64,000 nt of DNA from an uncultured Clostridium sp. (GCA_964475905.1 CAYYXX010000001.1:2989-66988); one strand, 5' to 3'. Positions 8,265-37,684 are shown, counted from the stretch's first letter. Program-made: numbers and translations. Notes: generated by a model from the letters alone, not told the origin.

Positions 8265-8314
8265 ACAACCAACTTCCTTATCCCCTTAATTATAACATCA
8301 TCATAAAAAAAATA

Positions 8315-9040: not shown

Positions 9041-9064
9041 AATTAGTATGAAGTGTAAAAATAA

Positions 9065-9756: not shown

Positions 9757-9768
9757 AAATATAACCTC

Positions 9769-13162: not shown

Positions 13163-13192
13163 AAAAAACTTTAGAGCCTAAGGTCTCTAAAG
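13143..13192 (-). terminator. tandem hairpins with CCTAAGGT loops; the downstream-most one (on the minus strand) is followed by U6, the likely terminator of the dnaE-gmk transcript
   Basis: atgaag-cctaaggt-cttcat and ctttagag-cctaaggt-ctctaaag. In the minus-strand RNA the second hairpin is followed by UUUUUU. Confidence 0.6.
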
Positions 13193-13311
13193 TTAAGATT
13201 ATTTTATTAATTTATCAGTATAACGAAGAGGAGCTATTGCTTTTATTAATTAATACAGGAAGTCATAGTGACTTGTTTAATACTGATTTTTCATTGAAGT
13301 TAATGTTCTCC

Positions 13312-13881: not shown

Positions 13882-16796
13882 TCCAATACATTAAAATTAT
13901 TAATAATAATCTGATATTTATCATATCTTCTTTCAACTCTACCAAAAACTTTTAAAATATTCCCCACCTTAACAGAAGAAAATTTCTTATAGACATTAGG
14001 AAAACAAGTAAATTGAATTTCACCAAATTCATCACTACCAGTAATAAAAGCCATAACATCATTATTCTTAGTAGTAGTCTCTCTTAAACTACTAATCATA
14101 ACAACTACAATAACATTCTTATTAAAAAAGCGACTAATATTAGAACTATTAACCCCAATCCCCTCATCCCTATACTTAACAGACGGATGTTCAGTAAGAT
14201 AAAAACCAATAGTTTTAAGTTCTAAAGAAGTAAGAATAGAATTATCAAACTCATCATACTCAGTAATTTCAGGCTTCAAAGCCTCAATAAGTCCAGAGTC
14301 TTTAGCAATATCAGCATAATTAAGAATAGTATCTAAATTTTGAATTAAAGTTCTTTTATTATATCCAAAATTCAAAGCCCCTGCATAAATAAGATTAGAA
14401 ATAATCTTCTTACCAATTCCATAATTAACACATCTAGTAATAAAATCAATCGGAGATAAAAATAACCCCTTTTCCCTTTCATTTAAAATATCATTAGAAA
14501 TAGAATTACCAACTCCAATAACAATAGATAAAGGACATCTAATCCCCTCTTGAGAAACAAAAAATTTATCACTACTTTCGTTAACATCAGGAGCAAGAAT
14601 TCTAATCCCATCTCTTCTAGCTCTATTAATATAAGTATTAAGTTTAGCACTATTACCAATAGAATTAGTAAGAATACCCGCGATAAAATATTTAAGAAAA
14701 TGCGTTTTAATAAAAGCCATTTTATAAGCTGTTATTGCATAAGAAACAGAATGAGATTTATTAAAACCATAATTAGCAAATTTAAGAATTAAATCATATA
14801 CTCTTGAAGATACCTCTTCATCATAACCATTATTTAAGCATCCCTTTATAAACTTAGGTCTTTCTGCAAGAATAACACTTTCTTTCTTCTTAGACATAGC
14901 TCTTCTTAAAATATCTGCCTCACCAAAAGAATAACCTGCCATCTTTCTAACAATTTGCATAATCTGCTCCTGATAAATAATAATACCATAAGTAGGTCTT
15001 AAAATATCTTCTAAATCAGGATGAATATAATCAATAACTTCTCTTCCCTCTCTTCTAGCAATAAATAAATCAATATTATCCATAGGACCGGGTCTATATA
15101 AAGCAAGAGCAGTCGATATATCAAGAAAAGAATTAATTTTAAGCTTAGCCAAAAATCTTTTCATTCCGGGAGATTCAAACTGAAAAATACCATCAGTATC
15201 AACATCATAAAAAACTTTCAAAGTCTGTTTATCATCTAAAGGAATTTTATCAAAACTAATATTAATTTTTTCTTTCTTTCTAATTTCCTCAATAACATTA
15301 CTAATTAAAGTTAAATTATCAAGTCCTAAAAAATCCATCTTAAGAAGCCCCAAAGGTTCTAAGTAATCCTTAGAAAAACCAGATACATACATATTAAGAG
15401 AAGTTTTATATAAAGGAATAACATTATCAATATCCACACTACTCATAACAATACCAGCAGCATGAATAGAAATATGTCTAGGAAGACCCTCAAGATAAGT
15501 AGAAATATCATAAAGATTTTTATAATCACTATTTGAATTAATAAGTCTATAAAATTTACTACCACTAACATAACTATCCTTAAGTTCCCGAGTAGTAATA
15601 GATTTAGCAATCTCATCAATAATAGGAAGAGAAATATTAAGAATTCTACCAACATCACGAATAACCTGTTTAGCCCCTAAAGTATTAAAAGAAATAATAC
15701 CAACCGCCCTCTTTTCACCATACTTATTCATAACATAATTAGTAACAATATTTCTCTTATCACTATCAAAATCAATATCAATATCAGGCATGGTTACCCT
15801 TTCAGGATTTAAAAATCTTTCAAACAATAAATCATACTTAATAGGATCAACATCCGTAATACCAATAGAATAACTAACTAAACTACCCGCTGCACTTCCC
15901 CTCCCAGGTCCCACTAAAATATTATTAAATTTAGCATACTTAACATAATCCCAAACAACCAAAAAATAATCACAAAATCCCATTTTATTAATAACATCAA
16001 GTTCATATTTAAGTCTATTCTTATAAACATCATTAACATTACCATTTAATCTTTTATTAAGTCCCTTATTACATAAATTACAAAGAAATTCAAAAGAATT
16101 AATATTCTTATCATAAATAGGAAGAAGATTTTTATTATTATCAAAAGAGACATTACAAGAATTAACAATATATTCCATATTAATTAAAGCCTGATCATCA
16201 ATAAAATAATTAAATTCATCACTATCAAGTAAATGTCTATTTTTATAAGTATTAAGTTCAAATTCCCCCAGTTTTTTATCTTCCCTAATCATCATAAGAT
16301 AATCAAGATACTTATAATCATCCTTATAAATATAAGAAATATCACTAATAAAAACAGCCTTATTCCCAATATTCTCTCTCTCTTCTACACTAGAATACCC
16401 AATAAAGAACTCATCAAAAAGATCTATAATATCCCCATTATAAGAAGAAATAGGCATAATTAAAACAATATTTTTAGAGTAAAGCTTAAGATCATCATAA
16501 GAAATCTCTCTATCAGAAATAATCGTAGATAACTTAATAAGATTTTTATACCCATCATTATTTTTAGCAATTAAAATAAAATTGTTAAAAGAGTATTTAA
16601 TCTCCATTCCAATAATAGGCTTAATATCATTCTTAATACAAGCAAGATAAAATTCATACACTCCAAACATATTGTTAACATCAGTAATAGCTAAAGAGAA
16701 GTAACCAAGCTCTTTAGCCCTTTTTGTCAAAATATCAATTCTATTTAAACTACTTAAAATAGAATAACAAGTTTTAACTTCTAAAGCACAAAGCAT
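13878..16796 (-). CDS. dnaE: DNA polymerase III alpha subunit (DnaE-type)
   Basis: 972 aa; N-terminal PHP domain, polymerase core and fingers, C-terminal OB fold; RBS GGAGG. Confidence 0.9.
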   Translation of the reverse strand: MLCALEVKTCYSILSSLNRIDILTKRAKELGYFSLAITDVNNMFGVYEFYLACIKNDIKPIIGMEIKYSFNNFILIAKNNDGYKNLIKLSTIISDREISYDDLKLYSKNIVLIMPISSYNGDIIDLFDEFFIGYSSVEERENIGNKAVFISDISYIYKDDYKYLDYLMMIREDKKLGEFELNTYKNRHLLDSDEFNYFIDDQALINMEYIVNSCNVSFDNNKNLLPIYDKNINSFEFLCNLCNKGLNKRLNGNVNDVYKNRLKYELDVINKMGFCDYFLVVWDYVKYAKFNNILVGPGRGSAAGSLVSYSIGITDVDPIKYDLLFERFLNPERVTMPDIDIDFDSDKRNIVTNYVMNKYGEKRAVGIISFNTLGAKQVIRDVGRILNISLPIIDEIAKSITTRELKDSYVSGSKFYRLINSNSDYKNLYDISTYLEGLPRHISIHAAGIVMSSVDIDNVIPLYKTSLNMYVSGFSKDYLEPLGLLKMDFLGLDNLTLISNVIEEIRKKEKINISFDKIPLDDKQTLKVFYDVDTDGIFQFESPGMKRFLAKLKINSFLDISTALALYRPGPMDNIDLFIARREGREVIDYIHPDLEDILRPTYGIIIYQEQIMQIVRKMAGYSFGEADILRRAMSKKKESVILAERPKFIKGCLNNGYDEEVSSRVYDLILKFANYGFNKSHSVSYAITAYKMAFIKTHFLKYFIAGILTNSIGNSAKLNTYINRARRDGIRILAPDVNESSDKFFVSQEGIRCPLSIVIGVGNSISNDILNEREKGLFLSPIDFITRCVNYGIGKKIISNLIYAGALNFGYNKRTLIQNLDTILNYADIAKDSGLIEALKPEITEYDEFDNSILTSLELKTIGFYLTEHPSVKYRDEGIGVNSSNISRFFNKNVIVVVMISSLRETTTKNNDVMAFITGSDEFGEIQFTCFPNVYKKFSSVKVGNILKVFGRVERRYDKYQIIINNFNVLE

Positions 16797-16818
16797 AATT
16801 ACTCCTCCTTATCAAAAA

Positions 16819-17127
16819 TTAATATCTAAGTAATAAATAAGTAATAATAAATCCAGAAATAGCAATAATTCCCGCTAAAGTAATAACACCAGCAAACCCA
16901 TTACTACCAATACCAATATTAGCTACATTCTTAGAATTATTAATCTCCTTAGATAAAACCTTAGTTTTAGGCTTATTAACCAAAGTAATAGCCTCAGGCA
17001 TTTCAATAGGAGCCCCACTTCCTTCTATTTCTAATCTAGAAGTACCATTCCTATCAACAAAAGTTTTTTCTAATTTATTAGGATTAAACTCAAAACCATA
17101 ATCATTCTCTTTCATACCTACCCTCAC
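16819..17127 (-). CDS. hypothetical small protein with a C-terminal TM anchor
   Basis: 102-aa ORF between dnaI and dnaE, with a 4-nt overlap with the dnaI stop; no motif. Confidence 0.35.
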   Translation of the reverse strand: MRVGMKENDYGFEFNPNKLEKTFVDRNGTSRLEIEGSGAPIEMPEAITLVNKPKTKVLSKEINNSKNVANIGIGSNGFAGVITLAGIIAISGFIITYLLLRY

Positions 17128-18035
17128 TTTCTTCTATTCTCCGCAATCATAGTAATACTATCTGTTAAATACTTAATTCTCTCAATAATTCGTCTTGCCT
17201 TAATTTTACCCTCAATATCATTACCAATAAGATGAATCTCCAATTCCTTAAGAGATAAATTAGAAGTAAAAAAAGTAGGTAAATACTCTTGCATCCGATA
17301 CTGCAGAATAGTTCCTAAAACTTCATCTCTATTCCAACTAGTAACAGTCTCTGCTCCAATATCATCAATTAAAAGTAAATCACATTTTTTAACTTTATCA
17401 AAAATCTCTTTATAATCATCAGAGAATCTCTCTTTAAGACTTCTTAAAAACTCTGGATAATATAAGCAAGCAACTTTCTTACCCTTTTTAGCAAGTTCAT
17501 TAAAACAAGCCGCCACTACATATGTTTTACCACATCCAAAGTTACCTGTCAAGAATAAACCCTTACTTTTTTCTCCATTTTCTTGTTTTTTAATAAAAGT
17601 AGTAAGCCATTTAATTGTTTCAAGTCTATTCTTATCATCAGTATAAATCTCTTTCATAGAAGCATTAACAATCTCACAAGGCATATCAAAAGAAATAATA
17701 TTCTCTCTATAAGCATTCTCTGTATCCATTTTCTTCTTATACTTACAAGGAACATAAGAAAAAACAATATTTCCCTGTTCAATAATAGGATAATAAACAT
17801 ATCCACATAATTCATTTTTACATTCCATAATATTCTTACAATTCTTACAATTCTTAAGTTCTAAAGCAGAATCCTCAATACTAGAAGTATACTTAATAAG
17901 TTCATCTCTAGAAATCTTAAGTTTAGAGACAATCTTCTTAAAAGTATCATCCTCCATAGCAATATCAAAATTTCTCTCTAATGCGTATCTATCAAAACTA
18001 TACTTATTACCCATAATATTTTTAGCATCTTTCAT
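17124..18035 (-). CDS. dnaI: primosomal helicase loader DnaI
   Basis: N-terminal Cys-rich zinc-binding region plus an AAA+ Walker A (GNFGCGKTY) and Walker B (LLLIDDIG). Confidence 0.8.
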   Translation of the reverse strand: MKDAKNIMGNKYSFDRYALERNFDIAMEDDTFKKIVSKLKISRDELIKYTSSIEDSALELKNCKNCKNIMECKNELCGYVYYPIIEQGNIVFSYVPCKYKKKMDTENAYRENIISFDMPCEIVNASMKEIYTDDKNRLETIKWLTTFIKKQENGEKSKGLFLTGNFGCGKTYVVAACFNELAKKGKKVACLYYPEFLRSLKERFSDDYKEIFDKVKKCDLLLIDDIGAETVTSWNRDEVLGTILQYRMQEYLPTFFTSNLSLKELEIHLIGNDIEGKIKARRIIERIKYLTDSITMIAENRRK

Positions 18036-19318
18036 TACTTATACTCCTTTAAAAGTTCTTCTAGCTGATTATCCTCACCATCACTAATTATATTTTTTTC
18101 AATTTCCTTATCAAACCAATCAGGAATTTTAGCATTAACCCTTTTTTCTTCTAATTTCTTTTTACTTCTCTTTTTATGTTCCTTTTCACAAAGACTCATA
18201 GCATCCTCAACAGTCTCAATTCCTTTTCTTTGCCATTCCCCAGCCATCATTTCAACAAGCCCTCTTGTAAGCTTTTTATCATTAACATTAAGAATATAAT
18301 CAATAAGAACATTAACAACCCCAGGTTTCAATTTATAATCAATACACAAATCTTCCACCAATTTCAAATCTCTTCTAGTAGGCTCATTACCCTTATTCTT
18401 ACTAATAAGAAGTTCTCTAGGAGAAATAGTCTCAAAAGTATAAATCATTTTAGCTCTCTTAGAAGTATCACCAACAGGCTTTCTTAAATACTCAGGCTGA
18501 CATCTAGAAACAATAGTAGGAAGATTACCCCCATTATCAAACTGATAAATATTTCTAGCACCCTTTCTTAACATTTCTTTATTAATAGTACCTTTCTCAT
18601 TAAAAGAAGCCATAACAATATTAGACATCTTAATAGCATCAATATCATAAATAAAAGATAAACTAATAATAAGTTCCTTAATCTCTTTAGTAAAAACTTT
18701 ATTAGTATCAATATTCTTAGGCATAGAATTTACAAGAAAATTAAAATCAAAATTACTATTAATACTAAGCTTAAGCCTATTATATTTTCTAATATCCTCA
18801 AGGGACATTTCATAAGAAGTCATACAAGTACTCTCAAAAACCTCATTAAACTTTTTCGTAACATCAGTATAACCCGTAGTATTAAATCTAGGCATTTTAA
18901 AACTCTTAACTAAATTATCATATTCAATTTTACCAATATTACTATATAAAACAATATTAAGAATAGGATGAGACAAAAATTCCATAGCACTAGCAGGACT
19001 ATATAGCTCATACACATAATTATTAACACTACCCTCTTTTACCAAAGATTTAATAAGACAAATAGCTTCTAATTTTCCTCTAGCCTCTTCAACTTCATTA
19101 ATAGTCATTCTAAGATTAGAAACTATCTTTTGATGTGTATAAACCGAACTAACAATTAATGAATTATCCAAATCAACCCAAAGTAAAAAATAAAGCATAA
19201 CAGCATCAATACCAATAACAGGGAGATATAAACTAGTAATAATTTTTCTATCTTCATCATGTAATATTGTTTTATTAATAACAACATAAGTATCAGCGGG
19301 TAAAAGATTATGTTTCAT
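18035..19318 (-). CDS. dnaB: replication initiation and membrane attachment protein (Firmicute DnaB/DnaD-like)
   Basis: C-terminal DDBH2 motif (YILNV...GEWQRKGIETVEDA) and dnaB-dnaI synteny. Start at MKHNLL is uncertain; the track ORF extends 45 codons upstream. Confidence 0.7.
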   Translation of the reverse strand: MKHNLLPADTYVVINKTILHDEDRKIITSLYLPVIGIDAVMLYFLLWVDLDNSLIVSSVYTHQKIVSNLRMTINEVEEARGKLEAICLIKSLVKEGSVNNYVYELYSPASAMEFLSHPILNIVLYSNIGKIEYDNLVKSFKMPRFNTTGYTDVTKKFNEVFESTCMTSYEMSLEDIRKYNRLKLSINSNFDFNFLVNSMPKNIDTNKVFTKEIKELIISLSFIYDIDAIKMSNIVMASFNEKGTINKEMLRKGARNIYQFDNGGNLPTIVSRCQPEYLRKPVGDTSKRAKMIYTFETISPRELLISKNKGNEPTRRDLKLVEDLCIDYKLKPGVVNVLIDYILNVNDKKLTRGLVEMMAGEWQRKGIETVEDAMSLCEKEHKKRSKKKLEEKRVNAKIPDWFDKEIEKNIISDGEDNQLEELLKEYK

Positions 19319-19407
19319 AAAAAATCCCTGCCTTTCTCTATATATTGTATAATAAAAAAAAATAAAAGTAAAGAAAAAAGAAGCCAAAATAACCTCCCTT
19401 AAAAACT

Positions 19408-20073
19408 CTATTTTTTCTTCCAAAAACAAAGTAAAGAAATAATAAATAAACAAATACCAATAATAAAAATATAAGAGTTATATTGATATAAAAAAGAACT
19501 AACTAAATTAACAAAGATATGAACTAAACTAATCTTAATCACATCTCTAGTCTTAATAAAAATATAACCATTAATAATTCCAATAAAAAAAGCAATAACA
19601 AGTGATAAAAAATTAGAATGGGCTATAGCGAAAATAAAACTAGATAAAAAAATAATAACCCACTTATTAGAAATAAACTTCTCAAGCTTTATAATAAATA
19701 AATACCTAAACAAAATCTCTTCAAAAATAGGACCAACAATACTAGAAGCTACAACAATAAGAAGAATAGAAATATCATAATCCTGATAAGAATAAATACC
19801 ATATTTATAAAGAAGCATATTATAAATAATAGATATAGATAATCCCAGTAAAATATAAGGAAAATAATTATTTTTATCATTAAAAGAAATATCAATTCTC
19901 TTCATATTAAAAATAATAAATAAAATATCAAATACCATAATCAAAATAGTACCAATATAATAACTCCTACTAACACTAAAAACAATAATAGAAAGAATAA
20001 GAATAAAATATTGAATAAAAAAAACAATTATTATTTCTTTTAAAGATAAAATAAAATTCCATAAATACTTCAT
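19408..20073 (-). CDS. CPBP-family (CAAX) intramembrane metalloprotease
   Basis: Multi-pass membrane protein with EEILFR and FxxxH motifs. Confidence 0.65.
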   Translation of the reverse strand: MKYLWNFILSLKEIIIVFFIQYFILILSIIVFSVSRSYYIGTILIMVFDILFIIFNMKRIDISFNDKNNYFPYILLGLSISIIYNMLLYKYGIYSYQDYDISILLIVVASSIVGPIFEEILFRYLFIIKLEKFISNKWVIIFLSSFIFAIAHSNFLSLVIAFFIGIINGYIFIKTRDVIKISLVHIFVNLVSSFLYQYNSYIFIIGICLFIISLLCFWKKK

Positions 20074-20139
20074 AAAACCTCCAAATAAAAATAAGATAGC
20101 TTAAATACAACTAGCTGTCTTATATAAAAGTACTTCATT

Positions 20140-20352
20140 TTAAGCCTTAACATTAGTCTCGGTAGAAACATTAATAGCTTGTAAACCTTTAGCTGTTTCA
20201 ATAAGTTCGAATTCTACAATTTGACCTTCAGATAATGATTTATAGCCATCTTGCTTAATAGCAGAATAGTGAACGAAAATATCTTCGCCATTAGGATAAT
20301 CAATAAAGCCATAACCCTTATCATTGTTAAACCATTTAACTCTTCCTTGCAC
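20140..20352 (-). CDS. cspA: cold-shock protein (CspA family)
   Basis: [17 protein letters not shown]...VHYSAI RNP motifs; 70 aa; about 250-nt upstream untranslated region. Confidence 0.9.
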
Positions 20353-20599: not shown

Positions 20600-21478
20600 C
20601 TATTTAATTTCCACATTCATAATTTCAAGAATTCTATTCAAATCATTAGCATTTTCAAAATAAATACAAACCTTCTTACTATCTACCTTAACCTTAGTAC
20701 CAAGAAAATCCCTAAGCTCATTCTCAATATGAAAATAATTAGCATCTGCTCTCTTCCTAGAAACAGGAATTCTCTTTTTAATTTCTTCATTCTTACTAAT
20801 CTCTTCTAAATCATGAACACTCATATTATTTTTAATAACCTCATCAGCAAGACTATTAATCTTTTCAGTATCCTCCATCTTAGAAAGAACTCTAGCATGT
20901 CCCATAGAAATTTCTCCATCAAGAATCTTCTTTTGAATATCTTGAGGTAAATTAAGAAGTCCTAAAGTATTAGTAATATGACTTCTACTCTTACCAATCT
21001 TTCTAGCTAAATCCTCTTGTCTAATATCTAAATTATCAATAATCCCCTTATAAGCCCAAGCAAGCTCTATCGCAGTAAGATTCTCCCTTTGAATATTCTC
21101 AAGTAAAGAAATCTCTCTCATCTCTTCATCAGAAAACTCCTTAACAATAGCGGGAATCTTATCCATACCAGCTATCTTACTAGCTCTAAGTCTTCTTTCA
21201 CCAGCAATAAGATCATAACCTTTGATCCCCTTTTTTACTATAATAGGTTGAAAAACTCCATAATTCTTAATAGACTCAGCCAATTCATTAAGAGCCTCTT
21301 CATTAAAAGTTTTTCTTGGCTGATAAGGATTAGGCCGAACATCATTAACATCAATTTCCATTACTTCATCAGCAGAAGCATTTTCCATAACATTACTTTC
21401 AAAAGTATCAAAATCAAGTACTTCACTAGAAAATAATTCTTCTAGTCCCTTACCTAAGGCTTTCTTCTTCTGTTCCAT
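20600..21478 (-). CDS. parB: chromosome partitioning protein ParB/Spo0J
   Basis: ParB box GERRxRA, HTH and C-terminal dimerisation domain. Confidence 0.9.
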   Translation of the reverse strand: MEQKKKALGKGLEELFSSEVLDFDTFESNVMENASADEVMEIDVNDVRPNPYQPRKTFNEEALNELAESIKNYGVFQPIIVKKGIKGYDLIAGERRLRASKIAGMDKIPAIVKEFSDEEMREISLLENIQRENLTAIELAWAYKGIIDNLDIRQEDLARKIGKSRSHITNTLGLLNLPQDIQKKILDGEISMGHARVLSKMEDTEKINSLADEVIKNNMSVHDLEEISKNEEIKKRIPVSRKRADANYFHIENELRDFLGTKVKVDSKKVCIYFENANDLNRILEIMNVEIK

Positions 21479-21542
21479 TTCTTATAATAAACTACTTTGC
21501 TAAATTAAGATAATCAATATTACATTTATTCCTAGGATAATA

Positions 21543-22262
21543 CTACAAAATTGGTTTAACATTACTATGATCTTCTGCTAATCTAACAAGTCTAGGAATA
21601 ATAGTATCATATACTCTCTCCTTAAAGAACCCTTTAATACTTTCTATTACTTCAATACCAAGATTAGTATTAGAAAACATAGTAAGAAGAACCCCCTCAA
21701 TATCTAAATTAGGATTAACTTTTCTTTGTGCCAACATAATAGTATTAATAAGCTGCATAATACCCTCAAGAGCAAAATATTCACACTGTACTGGAATAAG
21801 AACAGAATCAGAAGCGGCAAGTGCATTAGTCGTTAAAATACCAAGACTAGGAGGACAATCAATTAAAATAAAATCATAATTATCTTTGACTAGTCCAAGT
21901 TCTTCTTTTAACCTAACCACTCTATTAAACTTTTCTCCAGTTTCTTTAGCCTTTCTTTCTAATTCAATTAATTCCATATCAACCCCCGCTAAATTAAGAT
22001 AAGCAGGTAGTAAATAAAGATTTTTACTCTTAGTTTTTATAATAGAATTTTCGATAGTTTCTTTTTTAGTTAAAACTTCATAAACACTACTAGATATATC
22101 ACTCTTATCAACTCCAACTCCAGTAGTAGCATTCCCCTGTGGATCAAGATCAACAAGTAATACTTTCTTATTTAATACTCCTAAAGAAGCTGATAAATTT
22201 ATACTGGTAGTAGTTTTCCCAACTCCACCCTTTTGATTTACAATTGCTATAATTTTTCCCAT
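21543..22262 (-). CDS. parA: chromosome partitioning ATPase ParA/Soj
   Basis: Deviant Walker A KGGVGKTT. Start moved to MGKIIAIVNQ (RBS AAGGTGA). Confidence 0.9.
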   Translation of the reverse strand: MGKIIAIVNQKGGVGKTTTSINLSASLGVLNKKVLLVDLDPQGNATTGVGVDKSDISSSVYEVLTKKETIENSIIKTKSKNLYLLPAYLNLAGVDMELIELERKAKETGEKFNRVVRLKEELGLVKDNYDFILIDCPPSLGILTTNALAASDSVLIPVQCEYFALEGIMQLINTIMLAQRKVNPNLDIEGVLLTMFSNTNLGIEVIESIKGFFKERVYDTIIPRLVRLAEDHSNVKPIL

Positions 22263-22428
22263 CTGTTTCACCTTAATTTTCCTCATATATATTGTACCAA
22301 AAAAAAATAAAAAAAGAAAGTGATTTTTGTATATTTTCTTATTTACCAAACAACTGTATTATTTTATACTAAAACTAAATACTAAGTAAAGCACCTATAC
22401 TGAAAGTATAAAAAAACGCCAAAAATCC

Positions 22429-22457
22429 TTGACATAATCAAAATAAAAATATATAAT
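22429..22457 (+). promoter_or_regulatory. sigma-A promoter for rpmH-rnpA (TTGACA - 17 nt - TATAAT)
   Basis: Perfect consensus hexamers with 17-nt spacing, about 35 nt upstream of the rpmH ATG. Confidence 0.55.
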
Positions 22458-22490
22458 AAAATAGCATTTGACTTGGAGGTGTATTGTATA

Positions 22491-22613
22491 ATGAAAAGAA
22501 CATATCAACCTAATAATAGAAAAAAAGCTAAAAAGCACGGTTTCTTTAGTAGAATAAAAGGTAATGTTTTAAAAAATAGAAGAGCAAAAAAAAGAAAAAA
22601 ATTATGTGCTTAA
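22491..22613 (+). CDS. rpmH: 50S ribosomal protein L34
   Basis: [40 protein letters not shown]; RBS GGAGGTG; not in the track because it is under 60 aa. Confidence 0.9.
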
Positions 22614-22659
22614 AAACATAATTTTATTTTCTTTTTTTCTTTTTATAATTAGAGGTATT

Positions 22660-22998
22660 ATGAAAAAAATAGAAATAATAAAATCATCACAAGAGTATAC
22701 TGAAATAATAAATACAAATAAATCCAAAAAAAGTAAATATTTTAGTATATATTATAGAAAAAACAATAAAGACAATAGATATGGAATAACCATACCTAAA
22801 AAAACAGGAAAAGCTGTAATAAGAAATAAAATAAAAAGAAGGATAAAAAACATTATTGATAACAATAAAAAAATCGTGTATAATGGTTATGACTATGTTA
22901 TAATTGTTAAGAAAGGAATATTAGAATTAACATATGAAGAAATAGAAAAAGAATTGTTAAAACTAATAAGTATAGGTGATAAATGTGAAAAAAAGTAA
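22660..22998 (+). CDS. rnpA: RNase P protein component
   Basis: Basic protein of about 112 aa directly downstream of rpmH; start at MKKIEII with RBS AGAGG. Confidence 0.85.
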   Translation: MKKIEIIKSSQEYTEIINTNKSKKSKYFSIYYRKNNKDNRYGITIPKKTGKAVIRNKIKRRIKNIIDNNKKIVYNGYDYVIIVKKGILELTYEEIEKELLKLISIGDKCEKK

Positions 22999-23935
22999 AA
23001 AAGTACTAAAAATACTACTACTAATAATGATGATAGTAGTATCAACAGGTTGTACTAAAATACTAACAGATGAAAATAAAAAAGCCGTAAAATATGAAGA
23101 AACAGGAAAAACATTAACAGAAAATGTATTATGTAAACCAACAGATGAAAAAGTCGTAAAACTATATAAAGAAAACAATGTAGATGTTGATAAATTACCA
23201 TCATGCGAGTCATTCAAACCATTTGAAGAATATGAAGGACTATGGACTACAATATTCGTAAAACCATTAGCTTGGGTAATCATAAATATAGGAATTCTTT
23301 TAGAAAAAATAAATATAAGTAAAGGAATAGCCAATGGCTTAGCTATAGTAATATCATGTTTAATAATAAGATTAGTACTATATCCATTTACTAAGAAGAC
23401 TGCTATGCAATCAGAAAAGCTAAAAGAAGTTCAACCCCAATTAGAAAAATTAGAAAAGAAATATAAAGATAAAAATAGTGAAGAAGATCAAAGAAAAAAA
23501 GCCGAAGAAATGATGGCTATATATAGCAAAAATAAAATAAATCCACTATCAAGTTGTCTTCTATCATTTATTCAAATACCACTACTATTTGCCTTTTTAG
23601 AAGCCATAAATAGAACTCCCGTAATATTTGAAAATAAATTTCTAAAATTAGATATGGGAACAACTATATCCCATGGTATAATGTCTAATCTTTGGTACAT
23701 ATATCTATTATTCTTAATAATTATATTAGGAACATCATATTTATCATTTAGAAAAACATTAAAAGATCAAACAGCAATGCAAGCTCAAATGAAAGGAACA
23801 ATATATTTTATGTTAGCAATGATTTTAGTAGCATCATTTAGCTTACCAGTAGCCCTAGGAATTTATTGGATAACTTCATCACTATTTACCATAGCACAAA
23901 ATATATTAGTTGAAAGAAAGAAGGTAAAGAAGTAA
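22985..23935 (+). CDS. yidC: membrane protein insertase YidC (lipoprotein type)
   Basis: Lipobox VSTGC signal and a 5-TM YidC core. Start is GTG at 22985 (RBS AGGTGA plus 6 nt) or GTG at 22976; uncertain. Confidence 0.8.
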   Translation: MKKSKKVLKILLLIMMIVVSTGCTKILTDENKKAVKYEETGKTLTENVLCKPTDEKVVKLYKENNVDVDKLPSCESFKPFEEYEGLWTTIFVKPLAWVIINIGILLEKINISKGIANGLAIVISCLIIRLVLYPFTKKTAMQSEKLKEVQPQLEKLEKKYKDKNSEEDQRKKAEEMMAIYSKNKINPLSSCLLSFIQIPLLFAFLEAINRTPVIFENKFLKLDMGTTISHGIMSNLWYIYLLFLIIILGTSYLSFRKTLKDQTAMQAQMKGTIYFMLAMILVASFSLPVALGIYWITSSLFTIAQNILVERKKVKK

Positions 23936-24543
23936 TGAATAAGTATTATTATGAAGGAAAAACATACCAGCAGGCTATAGACTTAGCTATAGAAGAATTA
24001 AAAATATCTGAAGAAGATTTAATAATAAATAAAGTAGAAGAAAAAAATAATCTATTAAAAAAGGCTGTATTAATAGAAGTATATAATATAAATGAAATAA
24101 TATCATTCATAAAAGAAACAATAAATGAAATTACTAAGAGAATGAATGCTGAATCCAATCTTGAAGTAAGAAGAAGAGAAGAAAATATATCAGTAACAAT
24201 TTTTTCCAGTAATAATGCAATACTAATAGGTAAAAATGGAAAAAATATATCTGCTATGCAATTATTAATAAGACAAATGGTTAATTCAAAATTAAATAAA
24301 CCAATATCAATAATAATAGATGTAGGAAATTATAAAGAAAAAAGAGCTAAAAATATAGAATATTTAGCTAAAAAATTAGCTCATGAAGCATATAAAACTA
24401 AAACAGAAATAACAATGGATAGTATGAATTCATATGAAAGAAGAATTGTTCATTCAGTATTAGCAGATGATAAATATGTCTATACTGAGTCAGTAGGAGA
24501 AGAGCCAAATAGACGCGTAGTAATAAAATTAAAAGAAAGTTAA
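23935..24543 (+). CDS. jag: Jag/KhpB RNA-binding protein (KH plus R3H domains)
   Basis: C-terminal R3H (SYERRIVH); conserved yidC-jag-mnmE synteny. Confidence 0.8.
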   Translation: MNKYYYEGKTYQQAIDLAIEELKISEEDLIINKVEEKNNLLKKAVLIEVYNINEIISFIKETINEITKRMNAESNLEVRRREENISVTIFSSNNAILIGKNGKNISAMQLLIRQMVNSKLNKPISIIIDVGNYKEKRAKNIEYLAKKLAHEAYKTKTEITMDSMNSYERRIVHSVLADDKYVYTESVGEEPNRRVVIKLKES

Positions 24544-24609
24544 TAACAATAAATACTTTCTTTTTTTGTTCACACCTAGCCTTAAACAAGTTTAAGTCTT
24601 GCTGTGTAA

Positions 24610-24639
24610 TTTAGAGCCTATATAAATATAGTCTCTAAA
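24610..24639. repeat. hairpin repeat: same stem (tttagag/ctctaaa) as the 13169-13192 element but with a different loop
   Basis: tttagag-cctatataaatatagt-ctctaaa; preceded by the cttaaac-aa-gtttaag hairpin at 24581-24596. Confidence 0.45.
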
Positions 24640-24777
24640 TTATGTCCCTATGGACCTATTATATATAAGCCAAGCATTAGCAGTTGACATAAATTTTAAT
24701 TCATATTATCAAAATAAAATGACAAAATCATTATATTGTGATAAAATACTAAGGAATGAAGAAAGAAGGTGTATACC

Positions 24778-26124
24778 ATGGAAGATACAATTATAGCAAT
24801 AGCAAGTTCAAGTGCTGTAGGAGCAATATCAATAATAAGAATAAGTGGAAATGAAGCAATAAATATAGCTAATAAATTATTTACAAAAGACTTAACAAAA
24901 GTAAAAACTCATACTATACATTACGGCTTTATTAAAGATAAAGAAGAAAAAATAGATGAAGTACTATTAACAGTAATGAAATCGCCTAAAACATTTACTA
25001 AAGAAGATGTTGTAGAAATAAATTGTCATGGAGGAATAGCCACTACTAACAAAGTATTAGAACTATTACTAGCCCAAGGAGCAAGATTAGCAGAACCAGG
25101 AGAATTTACTAAAAGAGCATTCTTAAATGGTAGAATAGACTTATTAGAAGCAGAAGCTACAATGGATTTAATATCATCAAAAGCCGAATCAGCAAGAAAA
25201 ATATCAATGAATACATTAACAGGAGAAACATCAAACTTAATAAAAGAATTAAGACAAGAATTAATCCAAATAATAAGTAATATAGAAGTAAATATTGATT
25301 ATCCAGAATATGAAGATATAGAAGTATTAACAATAAATAATATTTTACCCAACATAAAGAAATTTAAAATTAAATTAGAAGAAATAATCAAGAAATCAGA
25401 AGATAGTAGGGTAGTAAAAGAAGGCTTAAAAGTAGGAATAATAGGAAAACCAAATGTAGGAAAAAGTAGTCTCTTAAATTCTTTATTAGAAGAAGAAAAA
25501 GCAATAGTTACAAATATTCCGGGGACAACAAGAGACATAGTAGAGGGTTCATTAATATTATCAGGTACTACACTAAATATAATAGATACCGCAGGAATAA
25601 GAAAGACAAAAGACACAGTAGAAATGCTAGGAGTAGAAAAAAGCCTAAAAACAATAGAAACATCAGATCTAGTAATATATATATTAAATAATAATGAAAA
25701 ATTATCCAAAGAAGAAAAAGAATTACTAGAAAAAATAAAAGATAAAAAGAAAATAATAGTAATAAATAAAATAGATTTAGAAAGTAAACTAGATAAAAGT
25801 CAATTAGAAAACTATATAGAAATATCAGTCAAAGAGAAAAAAGGAATAGAAAACATCAAAGAAGAAATAAAAAGATTGTTCAATATAGGAGAAATAACTT
25901 CAGCAGATATAACATATCTATCAAATGCCCGAAGTATTGCATTACTAAAAAAAGCACTATCTAACATAAATGAATCAATAAAAGAAATAGATAAAGAAAG
26001 TCCAATAGATATAGTAGAATTATCCCTAAAAGAAGCTTGGAATAATTTAGGACAAATAATAGGAGAAACATATACAGAAGAATTACTAGATGAATTATTT
26101 AGTAGATTTTGTTTAGGAAAGTAG
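24778..26124 (+). CDS. mnmE: tRNA modification GTPase MnmE
   Basis: G-domain GKPNVGKSS...DTAG and C-terminal CLGK; RBS AGGTG 11 nt upstream of the fourth-codon ATG. Confidence 0.9.
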   Translation: MEDTIIAIASSSAVGAISIIRISGNEAINIANKLFTKDLTKVKTHTIHYGFIKDKEEKIDEVLLTVMKSPKTFTKEDVVEINCHGGIATTNKVLELLLAQGARLAEPGEFTKRAFLNGRIDLLEAEATMDLISSKAESARKISMNTLTGETSNLIKELRQELIQIISNIEVNIDYPEYEDIEVLTINNILPNIKKFKIKLEEIIKKSEDSRVVKEGLKVGIIGKPNVGKSSLLNSLLEEEKAIVTNIPGTTRDIVEGSLILSGTTLNIIDTAGIRKTKDTVEMLGVEKSLKTIETSDLVIYILNNNEKLSKEEKELLEKIKDKKKIIVINKIDLESKLDKSQLENYIEISVKEKKGIENIKEEIKRLFNIGEITSADITYLSNARSIALLKKALSNINESIKEIDKESPIDIVELSLKEAWNNLGQIIGETYTEELLDELFSRFCLGK

Positions 26125-26132
26125 GTGAAAAA

Positions 26133-27971
26133 ATGAATTATGAAATAATAGTAGTAGGAGGAGGACACGCAGGATGCGAATCCGCTATAGCATCCGCTCG
26201 TAAAGGTCATAAAACACTATTAATAACAGGAAGAATAAACAACATTGCTACAATGCCATGTAACCCATCAATAGGAGGATCTGCTAAAGGTATAATAGTA
26301 AGAGAAATAGATGCCCTAGGAGGAGTAATGGGTGAAGTAGCAGATAAAACATTAATCCAAATGAAAATGCTAAATTATGCCAAAGGTCCCGCTGTAAAAT
26401 CCTTAAGAGCCCAAGCAGATAAAATAACATATCCCAAAGAAATGTTAAAACTATTACAAGAAGAATCAAATTTAACTATCAAAGAAGCAATGGTAGAAGA
26501 TCTAATAGTAGAAAATAATACTGTATATGGAGTAATATTAGCAGATAAAACAAAAATAACTTCACAAATAGTAATACTAACAACAGGAACATATTTAAAA
26601 TCAGATATCTTAATCGGAGACACTAGAACAAGAAGTGGACCACATGACGAAAAACCATCCATGTACTTATCAGATAACTTAAAAAAATATGGATTTCAAA
26701 TACTAAGACTAAAGACAGGAACACCACCAAGAATCGACAGGAGTACAATAGATTTTACAAAATGTAAAAAAGAAGATGGAGCTAAAGAATACTATACATT
26801 TTCCCATACAAATTTACCAATATATGATGTAAATAATCAAGAACCCTGCTACCTAATATATACAACTGAAGAGACAAAAAAAATAATTCTAGATAATCTA
26901 AATAAATCAAGTATGTATGGAGGCCTAAATGATATAACAGGAGTAGGTCCAAGATATTGTCCCTCAATCGAAGACAAAATAGTAAGATTCAGCGACAAAG
27001 AAAAACATCAGCTATTCCTAGAACCAGAAAGTCTATATTATGATGATATTTATTTACAAGGATTCTCAACTAGTATGCCAAAAGAAATACAAGAAAAAAT
27101 GGTTCATTCACTACCGGGATTAGAAAAAGCTAAAATATTAAAATACGCCTACGCTATCGAATATGATGCCATCTATCCAACACAAGTAAAACCAAGTTTA
27201 GAGACAAAAATAATAAATAATCTTTTTACCGCCGGCCAAATAAACGGCACAAGTGGCTATGAAGAGGCTGCTTGTCAAGGATTAATCGCAGGTATTAATG
27301 CCAGTTTAAAATTAGAAAATAAAGAGCCCCTAATCCTAAAGAGAAACGAAGCCTATATAGGAGTATTAATAGATGATTTAGTAACCAAAGGAACAAAAGA
27401 GCCCTATAGAATGCTAACATCACGAGCAGAATACCGCCTATTATTAAGACATGACAACTCTGATTTAAGACTAAGAGAATACGGCTACCAAGTAGGTCTA
27501 ATAAAAGATGAAAAATATAAAAAATTCTTAGAAAAGAAAAAAAATATTGAAGAATTAAAAAATAAATTACAAGAAACAAAAATAATTGTAAATAATGAAA
27601 AAAGAAAAGTAAAGCTAAGTATATATGAATATCTAAAAAATCCCTCAGCAGACATATTCAATATAATAGAAGAATACAATTTAAAATTAGATTATCCCCA
27701 AGATGTAATAGAAGAAGTAGAAATACAAATAAAATATGAAGGATACCTAAAAAAAGTAGAAAGAGAAGCAGAGAAAATGTTAAAAAACGAAGAAAAACAA
27801 ATACCAGCAGATATAAACTATGATAATATTCCTAATTTAGCAAGCGAAGCAAGACAAAAATTAAAAGAAATAAAACCTCTTACTATAGCTCAAGCAACTA
27901 GAATAAGTGGAGTAAACCCCTCAGATATATCAATTTTACTAGTATATTTAAGGAAAAAATATAATGAATAG
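26133..27971 (+). CDS. mnmG: tRNA uridine-5-carboxymethylaminomethyl modification enzyme MnmG (GidA)
   Basis: FAD-binding VVGGGHAGCE N-terminus; about 612 aa. Confidence 0.95.
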   Translation: MNYEIIVVGGGHAGCESAIASARKGHKTLLITGRINNIATMPCNPSIGGSAKGIIVREIDALGGVMGEVADKTLIQMKMLNYAKGPAVKSLRAQADKITYPKEMLKLLQEESNLTIKEAMVEDLIVENNTVYGVILADKTKITSQIVILTTGTYLKSDILIGDTRTRSGPHDEKPSMYLSDNLKKYGFQILRLKTGTPPRIDRSTIDFTKCKKEDGAKEYYTFSHTNLPIYDVNNQEPCYLIYTTEETKKIILDNLNKSSMYGGLNDITGVGPRYCPSIEDKIVRFSDKEKHQLFLEPESLYYDDIYLQGFSTSMPKEIQEKMVHSLPGLEKAKILKYAYAIEYDAIYPTQVKPSLETKIINNLFTAGQINGTSGYEEAACQGLIAGINASLKLENKEPLILKRNEAYIGVLIDDLVTKGTKEPYRMLTSRAEYRLLLRHDNSDLRLREYGYQVGLIKDEKYKKFLEKKKNIEELKNKLQETKIIVNNEKRKVKLSIYEYLKNPSADIFNIIEEYNLKLDYPQDVIEEVEIQIKYEGYLKKVEREAEKMLKNEEKQIPADINYDNIPNLASEARQKLKEIKPLTIAQATRISGVNPSDISILLVYLRKKYNE

Positions 27972-28665
27972 AGAAACATTTATAAAAGAATTAATAAAAC
28001 TAAATATAAAATTGCAAGAAGAAGAGCTAAATAAGTTAGATGAATATTATAAGATTTTAAATGAAGAAAATCAGAAATATAATTTAACAAGAATAATAAA
28101 AGAAGAAGAGGTTTATTTAAAACATTTTTATGATAGTTTAACAATAATAAAAATAATAAATATAGAAAAGCAAAGTATATGTGATCTAGGTTCAGGAGCA
28201 GGCTTTCCAGGTCTAGTATTAGCTATATGTTTTCCCAATGTTACAGTAACACTAATCGAATCAAATAGAAAGAAATGCCTATTTTTATCTAAAGTAGTAG
28301 AAAAATTAGAACTAAATAATGTAAAAATAATAAATACAAGAATAGAAGAATATGCCAAAGAAAATAGAGAAATATTTGATATAGTAACAGCAAGAGCAGT
28401 AGCTCCCCTAAAACATTTATTAGAATATGGAATTCCATTAGTAAAAATAAATGGCTATTTTATAGCTATGAAAGGAAAAATAGAAACAGAAAATCAAAAT
28501 ATAACTAATTATTTTAATAAATTAAGTATAAAAGAAGTACAAAAAATAATCTTTACACTACCATATGAAGAAAGTACACGAACACTAATAAAATATCAAA
28601 AACTAGAAAAAACTAGCTCCAAATACCCAAGAAAATATAATGAAATACTAAAAAAAGATATATAA
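27964..28665 (+). CDS. rsmG: 16S rRNA (guanine527-N7)-methyltransferase RsmG
   Basis: SAM-binding DLGSGAGFPG. Confidence 0.9.
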   Translation: MNRETFIKELIKLNIKLQEEELNKLDEYYKILNEENQKYNLTRIIKEEEVYLKHFYDSLTIIKIINIEKQSICDLGSGAGFPGLVLAICFPNVTVTLIESNRKKCLFLSKVVEKLELNNVKIINTRIEEYAKENREIFDIVTARAVAPLKHLLEYGIPLVKINGYFIAMKGKIETENQNITNYFNKLSIKEVQKIIFTLPYEESTRTLIKYQKLEKTSSKYPRKYNEILKKDI

Positions 28666-28684
28666 TATAACTAACCATTTATTG

Positions 28685-28715
28685 CCACTTAAGTCTAAGG
28701 TCTTAAGTGGTTTTT
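28685..28715 (+). terminator. rho-independent terminator after rsmG with a TCTAAGGT loop (member of the CCTAAGGT-loop hairpin family)
   Basis: ccacttaag-tctaaggt-cttaagtgg then TTTTT. Confidence 0.65.
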
Positions 28716-28898
28716 GTAAGCCAAAAGTCTTACAAAAAAAACATTTTTATTCTGTAGTAGACCATAAAAAAATTAGTCAAAATAAATAAGTGCTTAACAT
28801 AAAATGACAAAAAACAAAAAAATCACTTGTAAAAAAGCAATTTTTATAGTATTATTGTATTAGAGTAGGAAAGAAGAAATTAAAGAGGGTGTATAACT

Positions 28899-29924
28899 AT
28901 GAAAATGAATAAAGAAGTAGTACTGGTAAGGCTTTCCGATATTATCCCAAATAGATTTCAACCAAGACTAACTTTTGACGAAGAAGCCTTAAACGAATTA
29001 GCAAATTCCATCAAAGAACATGGAATAATTCAACCATTAATTTTAAGAGATTTAGGTAGTAAATATGAAATAATAGCGGGAGAAAGAAGATATAAAGCCT
29101 CCTCAATTGCTGGATTATCAGAAGTTCCCGCAATAGTAGGAACTATGGATGATCAAACAAGTGCCGAATTAGCCTTAATAGAGAACATTCAAAGAAAAGA
29201 CCTGTCCGCTATTGAAGAAGCTAAATCATATAAAAAAATATTAGAAATGGGCAATTTTACTCAAGAAGAATTAGCCAAAAGAATGGGTAAAAGTCAATCT
29301 ACTATAGCAAATAAGATGAGACTATTATCTCTTACAAACGAAGTACAAGTAGCCCTAATGAATAATCTAATATCCGAAAGACACGCAAGATGCTTACTTC
29401 AAGTAAAAGAAGAAGAATTACAAAAACAAATTCTCAATAAAATAATTACTGAAAGAATAAATGTTCGAGATACAGATGAATACATAAAAAACTTACTTGG
29501 AATAGCTAAAGAAACTCCACTAGTACCAGAACAAGCTACTCCATCAATAGATTTATCTGCTCCTATAGATAATAATATAAATCCATTATATGAAAGTGAG
29601 AGCGAAAATCCTAATGTATATACACAAACATCAAATATAGATTTTGTTAATATTAATAATTTAGATCAAGAAATTGAAGAGCCCAAACAAGACCTTCCAA
29701 TAGAAACAATAGAAGAGGAAAGGAATGATAACCAAATGTTAAATGCCGAAGTATTACCCAAAGAACCTAAGCCAAACAATAACATAAATAAAATAAAATA
29801 TGCAACAGCCATTAAACTAGCAAAATCTACTGTAAAAGACATAAAAGAAGCCGGTTATCAAGTAACTTTAGAAGAAATAGATACAGCAAATGATTATCAA
29901 ATATTAATAAAAATACAAAAATAA
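28899..29924 (+). CDS. noc: ParB-family nucleoid occlusion protein (Noc-like) with a long low-complexity C-terminal tail
   Basis: ParB N-domain (IAGERRYKAS) plus HTH; sits in the noc position after rsmG; C-terminal ~140 aa are N/E/P-rich. Confidence 0.75.
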   Translation: MKMNKEVVLVRLSDIIPNRFQPRLTFDEEALNELANSIKEHGIIQPLILRDLGSKYEIIAGERRYKASSIAGLSEVPAIVGTMDDQTSAELALIENIQRKDLSAIEEAKSYKKILEMGNFTQEELAKRMGKSQSTIANKMRLLSLTNEVQVALMNNLISERHARCLLQVKEEELQKQILNKIITERINVRDTDEYIKNLLGIAKETPLVPEQATPSIDLSAPIDNNINPLYESESENPNVYTQTSNIDFVNINNLDQEIEEPKQDLPIETIEEERNDNQMLNAEVLPKEPKPNNNINKIKYATAIKLAKSTVKDIKEAGYQVTLEEIDTANDYQILIKIQK

Positions 29925-29977
29925 GAATAAAAAAATAAAATATCACTCATAATCAAAAAGAAAGGGTGATATTTTTT

Positions 29978-30499
29978 ATGAAAAAAATAATAATAATATT
30001 AACCATACTAACGACAATAACAATCTATAACGAAATACAAAAAAAAGAAATAATAATACCAAGTACAGCAATAAGACTAAGAGTAATACCAAACAGTAAT
30101 ACAATATTAGATCAAAATATGAAAAACAAAGTAAAAACATATTTAGAAGAAGATACTTATAATCTTTTAGAAAACATAGACAATATAGAAGAAGCAAGAA
30201 ACATAATAAATAACAACATAGATAATATAAATAATTCAATAAATACCATATTTAAAGAAAACAATTATAATATGAATTATAATTTAGATTTCGGATATAA
30301 CTATTTTCCAGAGAAAGAATACCGAGGTATAAAATATAAAGAAGGTTATTACGAATCCCTTGTTATAACAATAGGAGAAGGTGAAGGAGACAACTTCTGG
30401 TGTGTTTTGTTTCCTAATTTATGTCTAGTAGATCTAGAAAATAAAGAAGATACAGAATATAAATCATGGGTAATAGAAAAAATAAATAAAATATTTTAG
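29978..30499 (+). CDS. spoIIR: stage II sporulation protein R (SpoIIR)
   Basis: Signal peptide, IRLRVIPNSN and NFWCVLFPNLC motifs characteristic of SpoIIR. Confidence 0.7.
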   Translation: MKKIIIILTILTTITIYNEIQKKEIIIPSTAIRLRVIPNSNTILDQNMKNKVKTYLEEDTYNLLENIDNIEEARNIINNNIDNINNSINTIFKENNYNMNYNLDFGYNYFPEKEYRGIKYKEGYYESLVITIGEGEGDNFWCVLFPNLCLVDLENKEDTEYKSWVIEKINKIF

Positions 30500-30533
30500 A
30501 TAGCCAAACATATACTTATATAGGTGATAACAA

Positions 30534-31070
30534 TTGAAATTATTAACAATTATCATAATAGCAGTAAGCTTATCAATGGATGCCTTTTCTCTATCATTAA
30601 TATATGGAACCCAAGGAATAAAGAAAAACCACAAAATAATTTTATCCATAATAGTAGGAATATATCATTTTATAATGCCCCTACTAGGAGAAACACTAGG
30701 AAATATAATAACCAGTAAAATAATAATAAATACAAGCATCTTAGTAGGAGTAATCCTAAGTTTAATAGCACTAGAAATGATAATTTCCAGTTTTAAAGAA
30801 GAAAATAAAACATTCCTATTAACAATCCCCAGTTACTTAATGTTTGGACTATCCGTAAGTATAGATAGTTTTACAACAGGAATTGGACTCTCTCTAATAA
30901 CCAATAAATATATATTATCATCACTAATCTTTGCCATAACAAGCTTAATTTTTACATATTTAGGCTTAAATCTAGGTAACATATTAAACCAAAAATACGG
31001 TAAACTATCAACTAGATTTGGAGCTATTTTACTATTTATACTAGGAATAATATATATATTAAAAAAGTAA
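30534..31070 (+). CDS. mntP: MntP/YtaF-family (DUF204) membrane protein, putative Mn2+ efflux pump
   Basis: Duplicated SMDAF/SIDSF motifs across 6 TM helices. Confidence 0.6.
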   Translation: MKLLTIIIIAVSLSMDAFSLSLIYGTQGIKKNHKIILSIIVGIYHFIMPLLGETLGNIITSKIIINTSILVGVILSLIALEMIISSFKEENKTFLLTIPSYLMFGLSVSIDSFTTGIGLSLITNKYILSSLIFAITSLIFTYLGLNLGNILNQKYGKLSTRFGAILLFILGIIYILKK

Positions 31071-37531: not shown

Positions 37532-37559
37532 ATTAGATAAACTATTAATAGTTTAATTA

Positions 37560-37673: not shown

Positions 37674-37684
37674 ACAACTACCTC

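Follow-up and report, generated by a model that had tools for sequence, protein, structure and literature searches.

This study concerns a 64,000-nucleotide stretch of DNA from an uncultured Clostridium sp. (GCA_964475905.1, CAYYXX010000001.1:2989-66988), called the window below, and in particular positions 20600 to 24543, where a parAB operon lies back to back with the gene rpmH. In the canonical origin region of Firmicutes, as in B. subtilis or C. difficile, the gene order noc-rsmG-mnmG-mnmE-jag-yidC-rnpA-rpmH is followed by the DnaA boxes of oriC and then by dnaA-dnaN. A sequence-only reading of the window had recognized the rpmH-to-noc array and its order, had named parAB as the divergent partner of rpmH, and had placed the replication origin at or near 22263-22490, between the two. 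Gene identities and gene order were assigned here by NCBIfam scans. They agree with the first two statements: the conserved origin-proximal array has its full gene content in the canonical internal order, and the parAB assignment is further supported by the identity of its products to Soj and Spo0J of B. subtilis. The features at the locus are the following.

20600-21478, minus strand: parB (Spo0J-like), second gene of the parAB operon (TIGR00180 parB_part, 202 bits)
21543-22262, minus strand: parA (Soj-like), truncated to 239 amino acids in the window; 55% identity to B. subtilis Soj
22263-22490: spacer of 228 bp, 22% G+C, with divergent promoters and the likely rearrangement junction
22291-22299, minus strand: candidate extended -10 element of the parA promoter, TGGTACAAT, from an alignment of spacers
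22429-22457, plus strand: sigma-A consensus promoter of the rpmH operon, TTGACA-17-TATAAT, 12/12 match
22491-22613, plus strand: rpmH
22660-22998, plus strand: rnpA
22985-23935, plus strand: yidC
23935-24543, plus strand: jag
24778-26124, plus strand: mnmE
26133-27971, plus strand: mnmG
27964-28665, plus strand: rsmG
28899-29924, plus strand: noc-like parB, best match Noc
22491-29924, plus strand: the whole rpmH-rnpA-yidC-jag-mnmE-mnmG-rsmG-noc array, compositionally of the lagging strand

The ParA protein has the deviant Walker A motif KGGVGKTT. ParB is 44% identical to B. subtilis Spo0J over its full length and 42% identical to Noc over part of its length; an identical ParB protein shows the Pfam domains ParB_N and HTH_ParB. 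The operon thus combines a Soj/Spo0J-type ATPase with a two-domain ParB. Spo0J is the best match of this left-hand ParB, while the ParB encoded on the right at 28899-29924 matches Noc best. The B. subtilis reference proteins aligned well, and the parAB and noc assignments stand.

The switch in gene orientation at the junction, also claimed previously, is complete on its left side: every gene called left of 22262, 21 in total, is on the minus strand. The right side is not wholly plus: 40 of the 43 genes right of 22491 are on the plus strand and three are on the minus strand (37685-38314, 41834-42415 and 44367-44717). The genes rsgA and rpe, just past the end of the window, continue in the same orientation.

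Promoters but no DnaA boxes between rpmH and parA

The G+C content of the spacer is similar to that of the remaining intergenic DNA; the window has 25-30% G+C. The perfect sigma-A promoter noted earlier in this 228-bp interval is indeed there, and it is kept in all relatives that were aligned. On the parA side, a T-run is followed by a TG-extended -10 element with the consensus TGATACAAT (TGGTACAAT in the window), which is kept in 10 of 10 short spacers aligned. Judged from this conservation, the TGGTACAAT element is the probable promoter of parA.

The spacer contains no TTATCCACA DnaA box, even with one mismatch allowed, in agreement with the sequence-only reading, which had seen no convincing box. 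It also contains no TTWTCMACA box; the whole window has 14 of them, with a maximum of three per 400 bp. As a positive control we used the dnaA-rpmH spacer of a metagenome contig, L154 (OIZL01002371.1; L-numbers are labels of the loci and contigs compared), which holds six TTWTCMACA boxes within 210 bp. L154 shows the features of an origin in such a genome, and the spacer of the window is without them.

Conservation of the spacer among relatives is limited to about 60 bp at each end, which correspond to the promoters and leaders, and the center is variable. Spacers are between 190 and 3648 bp long, and some contain inserted, unrelated genes. No conserved non-coding core made up of boxes and an unwinding element was found among the spacers of relatives, and a repeat search in the spacer gave low-complexity AT matches only.

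The spacer is an insertion hotspot in a number of loci (L007, L014, L015, L026, L088-L097 and L113-L119). Depending on the species, the inserts are a NUDIX-like gene, hypothetical genes of 410-414 amino acids or a 558-amino acid HA-domain gene. In one abundant species the spacer holds tandem ResIII+HA helicase genes (1000-1100 amino acids) over more than 10 kb, followed by a gene for 96 amino acids. All inserts have the orientation of rpmH and are of the lagging type as defined below. In one species (L113-L122) there are also three extra genes between jag and mnmE, which encode an MscS-like protein, a hypothetical protein and an acetyltransferase.

No dnaA or dnaN near the junction

The statement that dnaA and dnaN are missing from the 64-kb window held up in two kinds of search. 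No large open reading frame (ORF) of the window has an NCBIfam match to the DnaA or DnaN families. When DnaA and DnaN of B. subtilis were compared by tblastn with the window and 85 loci, only weak matches to the AAA+ domain of DnaI were obtained; the low-GC DnaA and DnaN of L154, used as a second query set against the window, likewise matched only the DnaI AAA+ domain. Furthermore, neither gene occurs within 10 kb of parA in 80 relatives. Long contigs, including a 1.10-Mb contig that contains the junction, were viewed only within 10 kb on either side of the match. A literature search on RF39, the order to which these bacteria belong (see below), together with dnaA, and on origin translocation, found nothing relevant.

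Three long contigs end 114-117 kb away from the junction, and we considered the origin or an rRNA operon as the cause. This idea was dropped because contigs of another species span 131-183 kb there.

Strand composition does not change sign at the junction

The sequence-only reading had proposed cumulative skew as a check on the origin. In the window, the raw cumulative GC skew is indeed lowest at 21-23 kb. The raw GC skew is about -0.4 up to 22 kb and about +0.05 to +0.15 beyond, and the AT skew is above zero left and right alike. At a true origin the two sides would mirror each other, so this asymmetry is a warning against an origin. Coding-strand bias was separated from strand bias by the use of third codon positions and 4-fold degenerate sites; intergenic skews were computed with the ribosome-binding-site zones masked. 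This analysis indicated that the raw minimum is due to the purine bias of the coding strand, which switches strand at this point, and not to a change in replication polarity.

In the 21 left-hand minus-strand genes, parA and parB included, the 4-fold sites on the coding strand comprise 1479 T, 260 A, 166 G and 39 C (76%, 13%, 8.5% and 2%). The 40 plus-strand genes on the right have the complementary preference, with 2417 A, 785 T, 501 C and 76 G (64%, 21%, 13% and 2%). If there were an origin at 22.4 kb, the two sets of genes would be alike in composition. The three right-hand minus-strand genes (109 T or 64%, 45 A, 12 G and 5 C) resemble the left-hand set and are opposite to their neighbors; this means that composition follows the DNA strand and not the gene. 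The same picture is obtained gene by gene. Third-position skews in the rpmH-noc array range from -0.44 to +0.30 (GC) and from +0.23 to +0.51 (AT), and those of most left-hand genes from +0.7 to +1.0 (GC) and from -0.25 to -0.70 (AT). In intergenic DNA the top strand has GC skews of -0.21 on the left and -0.06 on the right, with AT skews of +0.12 and +0.18. Thus 4-fold sites, per-gene third positions and intergenic DNA reveal no sign change of strand composition at the junction. The bottom strand is G+T-rich over all 64 kb, and the polarity has no switch at 22.3-22.5 kb.

Enrichment of G+T at synonymous sites of the leading strand is a general rule that includes the Firmicutes. In a sister clade, 330 of 401 ORFs (82%) from 20 loci are coded on the G/T-rich strand, and on a related RF39-like scaffold the genes rpsF-ssb-rpsR-rplI and the replicative helicase gene are of the G+T type. 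On these grounds we take the G+T-rich coded strand as the leading one. The composition then makes it most likely that the fork travels leftward through the whole window and passes the junction on its way. The left-hand genes, including parB with its leading-type 4-fold sites, would be co-directional with the fork. The block from rpmH to pknB, at least 41.5 kb with 40 of 43 genes on the plus strand, would be encoded head-on, on the lagging strand, and the active origin would be located to the right of the window, at a distance of more than 41 kb from the junction. The synonymous composition of the rpmH-noc array is of the lagging type, not that of genes encoded on a leading strand, and gene orientation flips at the junction while the polarity of composition stays the same. 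The lagging-type block still continues where the window ends at 64 kb. Beyond the array and parAB, the blocks are composed as follows.

849-20352, minus strand: leading-type (co-directional) block with hpf ... valS, gmk, dnaE, dnaI, a dnaB-type helicase loader, a CPBP protease and csp; between hpf and valS also a prsA-like gene, hinT and a deacetylase
29966-64000, plus strand: continuation of the lagging-type (presumably head-on) block with spoIIR, ytaF, murA, rpmE, ltaS, an agr-like locus, cwlD and htrA
up to 64000, plus strand: further genes of the lagging-type block, tsaE-tsaB-rimI-tsaD, pcrA, rlmN, stp, pknB and others

Together with the searches described above, these data show that the junction fails every testable defining feature of an origin: it has no boxes, no dnaA, no polarity switch and no conserved core.

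Three further observations concern strand composition. In the window and in the sister clade (L030-L082) synonymous codon choice is set almost wholly by the replication strand, with 76% T on the leading and 64% A on the lagging strand; this effect is among the strongest known to us. A P-type Ca2+-ATPase gene and two small neighbors at 44367-48208 have third-position skews of about +0.2, between the strand classes; they may have been acquired recently, or may form a segment of the lagging-type block that was inverted not long ago. In four sister-clade loci (L047, L056, L066 and L067), parAB and most of its neighbors are of the lagging type, with a 4-fold GC skew of -0.6 to -0.7. Large head-on blocks seem to recur in the order RF39.

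The junction is shared by a clade of gut bacteria

Four assemblies of the strain, independent of each other, contain the junction. When a single genome per species was scanned, 80 relatives of parA were obtained, all from uncultured "Bacilli/Tenericutes" metagenome-assembled genomes (MAGs) of the gut, among them Clostridium sp. CAG:302. The family CAG-302 has been placed in the order RF39 (PMC7676259). Deposits of the lineage are labeled "Tenericutes/Bacilli" MAGs, and their genome sizes are about 1.1-1.5 Mb. Among GTDB species representatives, 23 loci have a ParA at least 85% identical and reach upstream of parA; rpmH is divergent from parA in all 23. The same junction occurs in 32 metagenome contigs and in the 1.10-Mb contig mentioned above, which came from a search with MnmG; it is contig_8309 of ERZ28758461, with the junction at 127.7-130.0 kb. 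Other long records that include the junction are CP091726.1 (1.46 Mb, junction near 115 kb), OLPO01000001.1 (641 kb) and MNTB01000030.1 (247 kb). Matches from a search with RnpA homologues and from a metagenome scan with MnmG are all members of the same clade.

The compositional contrast at 4-fold sites is shared as well. Of 21 relatives tested, 19 favor A over T in the genes of the rpmH side and T over A in those of the parA side, from which we conclude that the head-on state is long-standing. In the sister clade, the place of rpmH directly upstream of parA is taken by ftsH<-tilS<-, which makes the adjacency of rpmH and parA specific to the present clade. This tilS-ftsH pair of the sister clade (L030-L082) is itself head-on, within an otherwise co-directional run that includes metG ... 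spoVG-yabP-divIC-like genes; a head-on tilS-ftsH pair is also found in L100-L102.

A contig that joins dnaA to rpmH

Contig L154, 8.6 kb long, has the arrangement dnaN<-dnaA<-[353 bp, 18% G+C, six TTWTCMACA boxes]->rpmH-rnpA-yidC-jag-mnmE-mnmG. From the start codon of rpmH onward it is 99.4-99.7% identical to a species of the clade, and rpmH itself is 100% identical. In ten other assemblies, this matching species has helicase genes upstream of rpmH. The dnaA and dnaN genes of L154 have a 4-fold G+C of 2-7%, versus 10-20% in the rest of the contig, and are of neither leading nor lagging type. Over its first 66 nt, rpmH does not differ between species. The contig may be an inter-species chimera through rpmH, or it may reflect a second copy of rpmH at oriC or a rare isomer. 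We did not accept L154 as proof of a canonical arrangement, because it could just as well be a chimera formed through the conserved rpmH.

The genes dnaN and dnaA of L154 lie in its part 1-3015, with further boxes around the dnaA-dnaN boundary. Among the metagenome contigs L123-L202, 12 of about 25 ends upstream of rnpA fall within about 340 nt around rpmH, and several contigs end between rpmH and rnpA. This pile-up implies that rpmH acts like a repeat in assembly graphs, either between species or within a genome.

What the junction is likely to be

The gene order, the uniform polarity, the conservation of the junction and the variability of the spacer are direct observations. They are best explained, in our judgment with good though not full confidence, if the spacer is an old, clade-wide rearrangement junction between divergent housekeeping operons with their own promoters and not an origin, with the fork passing from right to left. 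In the ancestor of the family-level clade (order RF39, CAG-302-like), the block rpmH...noc, together with no less than 34 kb of genes downstream of it, would have been split from dnaA/oriC. The detached block would have been joined to the upstream side of parAB, and it would then have stayed head-on long enough for its synonymous sites to reach lagging-strand composition. Two histories are compatible with this scheme. We favor an intra-replichore inversion of an origin-proximal segment, in which one of the breakpoints fell between rpmH and oriC; the other history is a relocation of the dnaA-oriC cassette away from the junction. An inversion and the removal of the cassette produce the same local picture. 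Three loci found by an FtsH search seeded from an outgroup (L100-L102) have tilS-ftsH without parA and no dnaA within 10 kb. Their gene order follows that of the sister clade as far as tilS and then runs on with tyrS-prfA-prmC in place of parAB; they consist mostly of leading-type genes. Their membership in the clade is unproven, as no scaffold is common to the RnpA matches; their layout would fit an inverted block inside a replichore.

The claim of an origin at or near 22263-22490 is not supported, in view of the constant polarity, the lack of boxes and a spacer that is variable and, in relatives, interrupted by genes. Of the two alternatives offered along with that claim, displacement of oriC/dnaA by a rearrangement fits our data, and a non-canonical origin at this site is disfavored. 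The sequence-only reading had also named a local inversion, with the origin far away, as the outcome that would speak against it. There is no polarity switch here, and the orientation switch is indeed best seen as a rearrangement; the event was neither local nor recent, being family-wide and compositionally equilibrated.

Some findings speak against a rearrangement junction. The location of dnaA/oriC was not found, and the direction of the fork comes from composition alone. It is unusual for a Firmicute that a whole clade has at least 40 head-on genes, including the essential rpmH, rnpA, yidC, murA and tsaD. The intergenic GC skew on the right is only weakly negative (-0.06), and two of the 21 relatives (L015 and L018) show no AT contrast. 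Finally, L154 joins dnaN-dnaA and a DnaA-box cluster to a clade-like rpmH block; if this join is genuine, the canonical arrangement exists in some cells or strains.

L154 is also the starting point of an alternative that we consider improbable. Here the genome would have two inverted rpmH copies, one at dnaA/oriC and one at parAB, and recombination between them would toggle an essential block of at least 40 kb between co-directional and head-on states, with head-on as the long-term majority. No more than two observations hint at it: the sequence of L154 switches exactly at the rpmH start codon, where dnaN-dnaA and six boxes are linked to it, and the contig ends pile up at rpmH. On the other hand, the synonymous make-up of dnaA and dnaN in L154 differs from the rest of the contig, the shared 66-nt start of rpmH lets an inter-species chimera explain both L154 and the contig breaks, and no second rpmH was seen in any locus compared. 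It is extremely unlikely that the orientation switch arose by a local inversion that is recent and confined to the strain, or by a chimeric assembly, although the same contig breaks at rpmH and a local sequence anomaly 700-1000 bp from the junction could be cited for this: the junction occurs in four independent assemblies of the strain and also across dozens of other species and contigs, and the block is already of the lagging type, which is not yet expected after a recent event.

Other explanations would keep an origin at the junction. A non-canonical bidirectional origin without DnaA boxes, with dnaA elsewhere, would account for the divergence of gene orientation, the raw cumulative GC skew minimum, the classical origin neighbors on its flank and the presence of the helicase-loader genes dnaB/dnaI and of dnaE within 6 kb. 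Such an origin is highly improbable in view of the constant synonymous and intergenic composition, the same contrast in 19/21 relatives, and a spacer whose center is variable, is interrupted by genes in relatives and has no DnaA boxes. A unidirectional, leftward origin with one leading strand on both sides would reconcile origin-like gene order with uniform polarity. We know of no unidirectional chromosome replication in the Bacilli, the junction has no initiator gene, DnaA boxes or conserved non-coding core, and 40 genes would be left facing the arriving fork without a reason, so that there is next to no chance of this being correct. It is also conceivable that the strand asymmetry comes from some other strand-specific process and is uninformative about the origin. 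In its favor, the asymmetry is of unusual strength, with 76% T against 64% A at 4-fold sites, and three sister-clade loci (L047, L056 and L066) consist mostly of genes of the "lagging" type. However, the asymmetry tracks the DNA strand and not the gene, which rules out effects of transcription or expression, G+T on the majority-coding strand is a universal signature of replication, and ribosomal-protein and helicase genes are of the leading type. This explanation is very unlikely.

A probable error in parA and the absence of canonical parS

The parA gene of the window differs from that of other assemblies of the strain by one conspicuous feature.

21491-21571: window-specific cluster of 13 G:C>T:A transversions within 81 bp

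Over 8.8 kb, 13 of the 14 differences between the window and L002/L003 sit in these 81 bp. Four other assemblies of the strain, 99.8-100% identical apart from this, lack these changes. The cluster creates a premature TAG, which shortens ParA from 270 to 239 amino acids, and it alters the Shine-Dalgarno sequence of parB from AAGGAGG to AAGTAGT. The intact parA, found in L001-L003 and L098, encodes 270 amino acids and would end at 21450 in the window, overlapping parB. The cluster is probably not biological and goes back to damage or to an error made in sequencing or assembling the source.

A canonical 16-bp parS site (TGTTNCACGTGAAACA, up to two mismatches) was found neither in the 64-kb window nor in more than 20 loci of the clade (L006-L029). 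A search of the window for Noc-binding sites was also negative, and CACGTG does not occur once in the 64 kb, even though ParB clearly resembles Spo0J. Sites of the parS type may be located near the origin elsewhere in the genome. A parS variant, TCTTACACGTGAAGCA, is present upstream of parA in a few sister-clade loci (L031 and L032) and about 2.5 kb upstream in L074.

Scans of the 64-kb window for tRNAs and with Rfam gave no matches. The window has several sporulation-type genes, namely spoIIR and a ytaF-like gene (29966-31070), cwlD (48379-49041) and a pdaB-like deacetylase gene (6891-8264). The agr-like quorum-sensing locus at 35486-38806 encodes a LytTR regulator, a kinase and agrB.

Implications and relation to known systems

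The locus is a warning for origin prediction in uncultured genomes, because gene order and the raw cumulative GC-skew minimum both point here to a site that, judged by its synonymous-site composition, is not the origin. Estimates of growth from peak-to-trough ratios and analyses of replichores would be misled for this RF39 family, which is common in the human gut. If our interpretation is true, a whole family has long lived with at least 40 housekeeping genes directed against replication, including rpmH, rnpA, yidC, murA, tsaD and pcrA. It would then be a natural test case for replication-transcription conflict, as co-orientation is normally strong in Firmicute-type genomes (82% in the sister clade). 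Furthermore, strand-dependent codon usage is a sensitive gene-by-gene marker of replication direction that can be used on short contigs.

The locus is best filed as a rearranged origin-type synteny block combined with a long-lived head-on block, that is, under known kinds of event and not as a new system. What is unusual is which genes face the fork, the fixation throughout the clade and the very strong strand dependence of codon usage. The window shares with the canonical Firmicutes origin the order from rpmH to noc, the strong sigma-A promoter of rpmH and a divergent operon across a short AT-rich spacer. It differs in that the partner is parAB and not dnaA-dnaN, in the absence of a box cluster and of a polarity switch, and in the location of the array on what appears to be the lagging strand. 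The parAB operon resembles the Soj-Spo0J ParABS system in the identities of ParA and ParB, in the ParB_N and HTH domains and in the overlap of the two genes in the intact allele. Unlike that system, it is detached from noc and lies on the other side of rpmH, with no canonical parS in 64 kb.

Large intra-replichore inversions, both natural ones and those engineered in B. subtilis, also flip gene orientation at constant polarity and produce a long head-on run. Known natural inversions are mostly recent and at the strain level, and the engineered ones are costly. The block in the window, in contrast, holds essential genes that normally flank the origin, is fixed family-wide and has equilibrated to lagging-strand composition. 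Finally, codon usage determined by the strand is known from Borrelia burgdorferi, a member of a different phylum. As in B. burgdorferi, codon choice in the window depends mainly on the replication strand, with T/G-ending versus A/C-ending codons; here the strand signal serves only as a marker of polarity.

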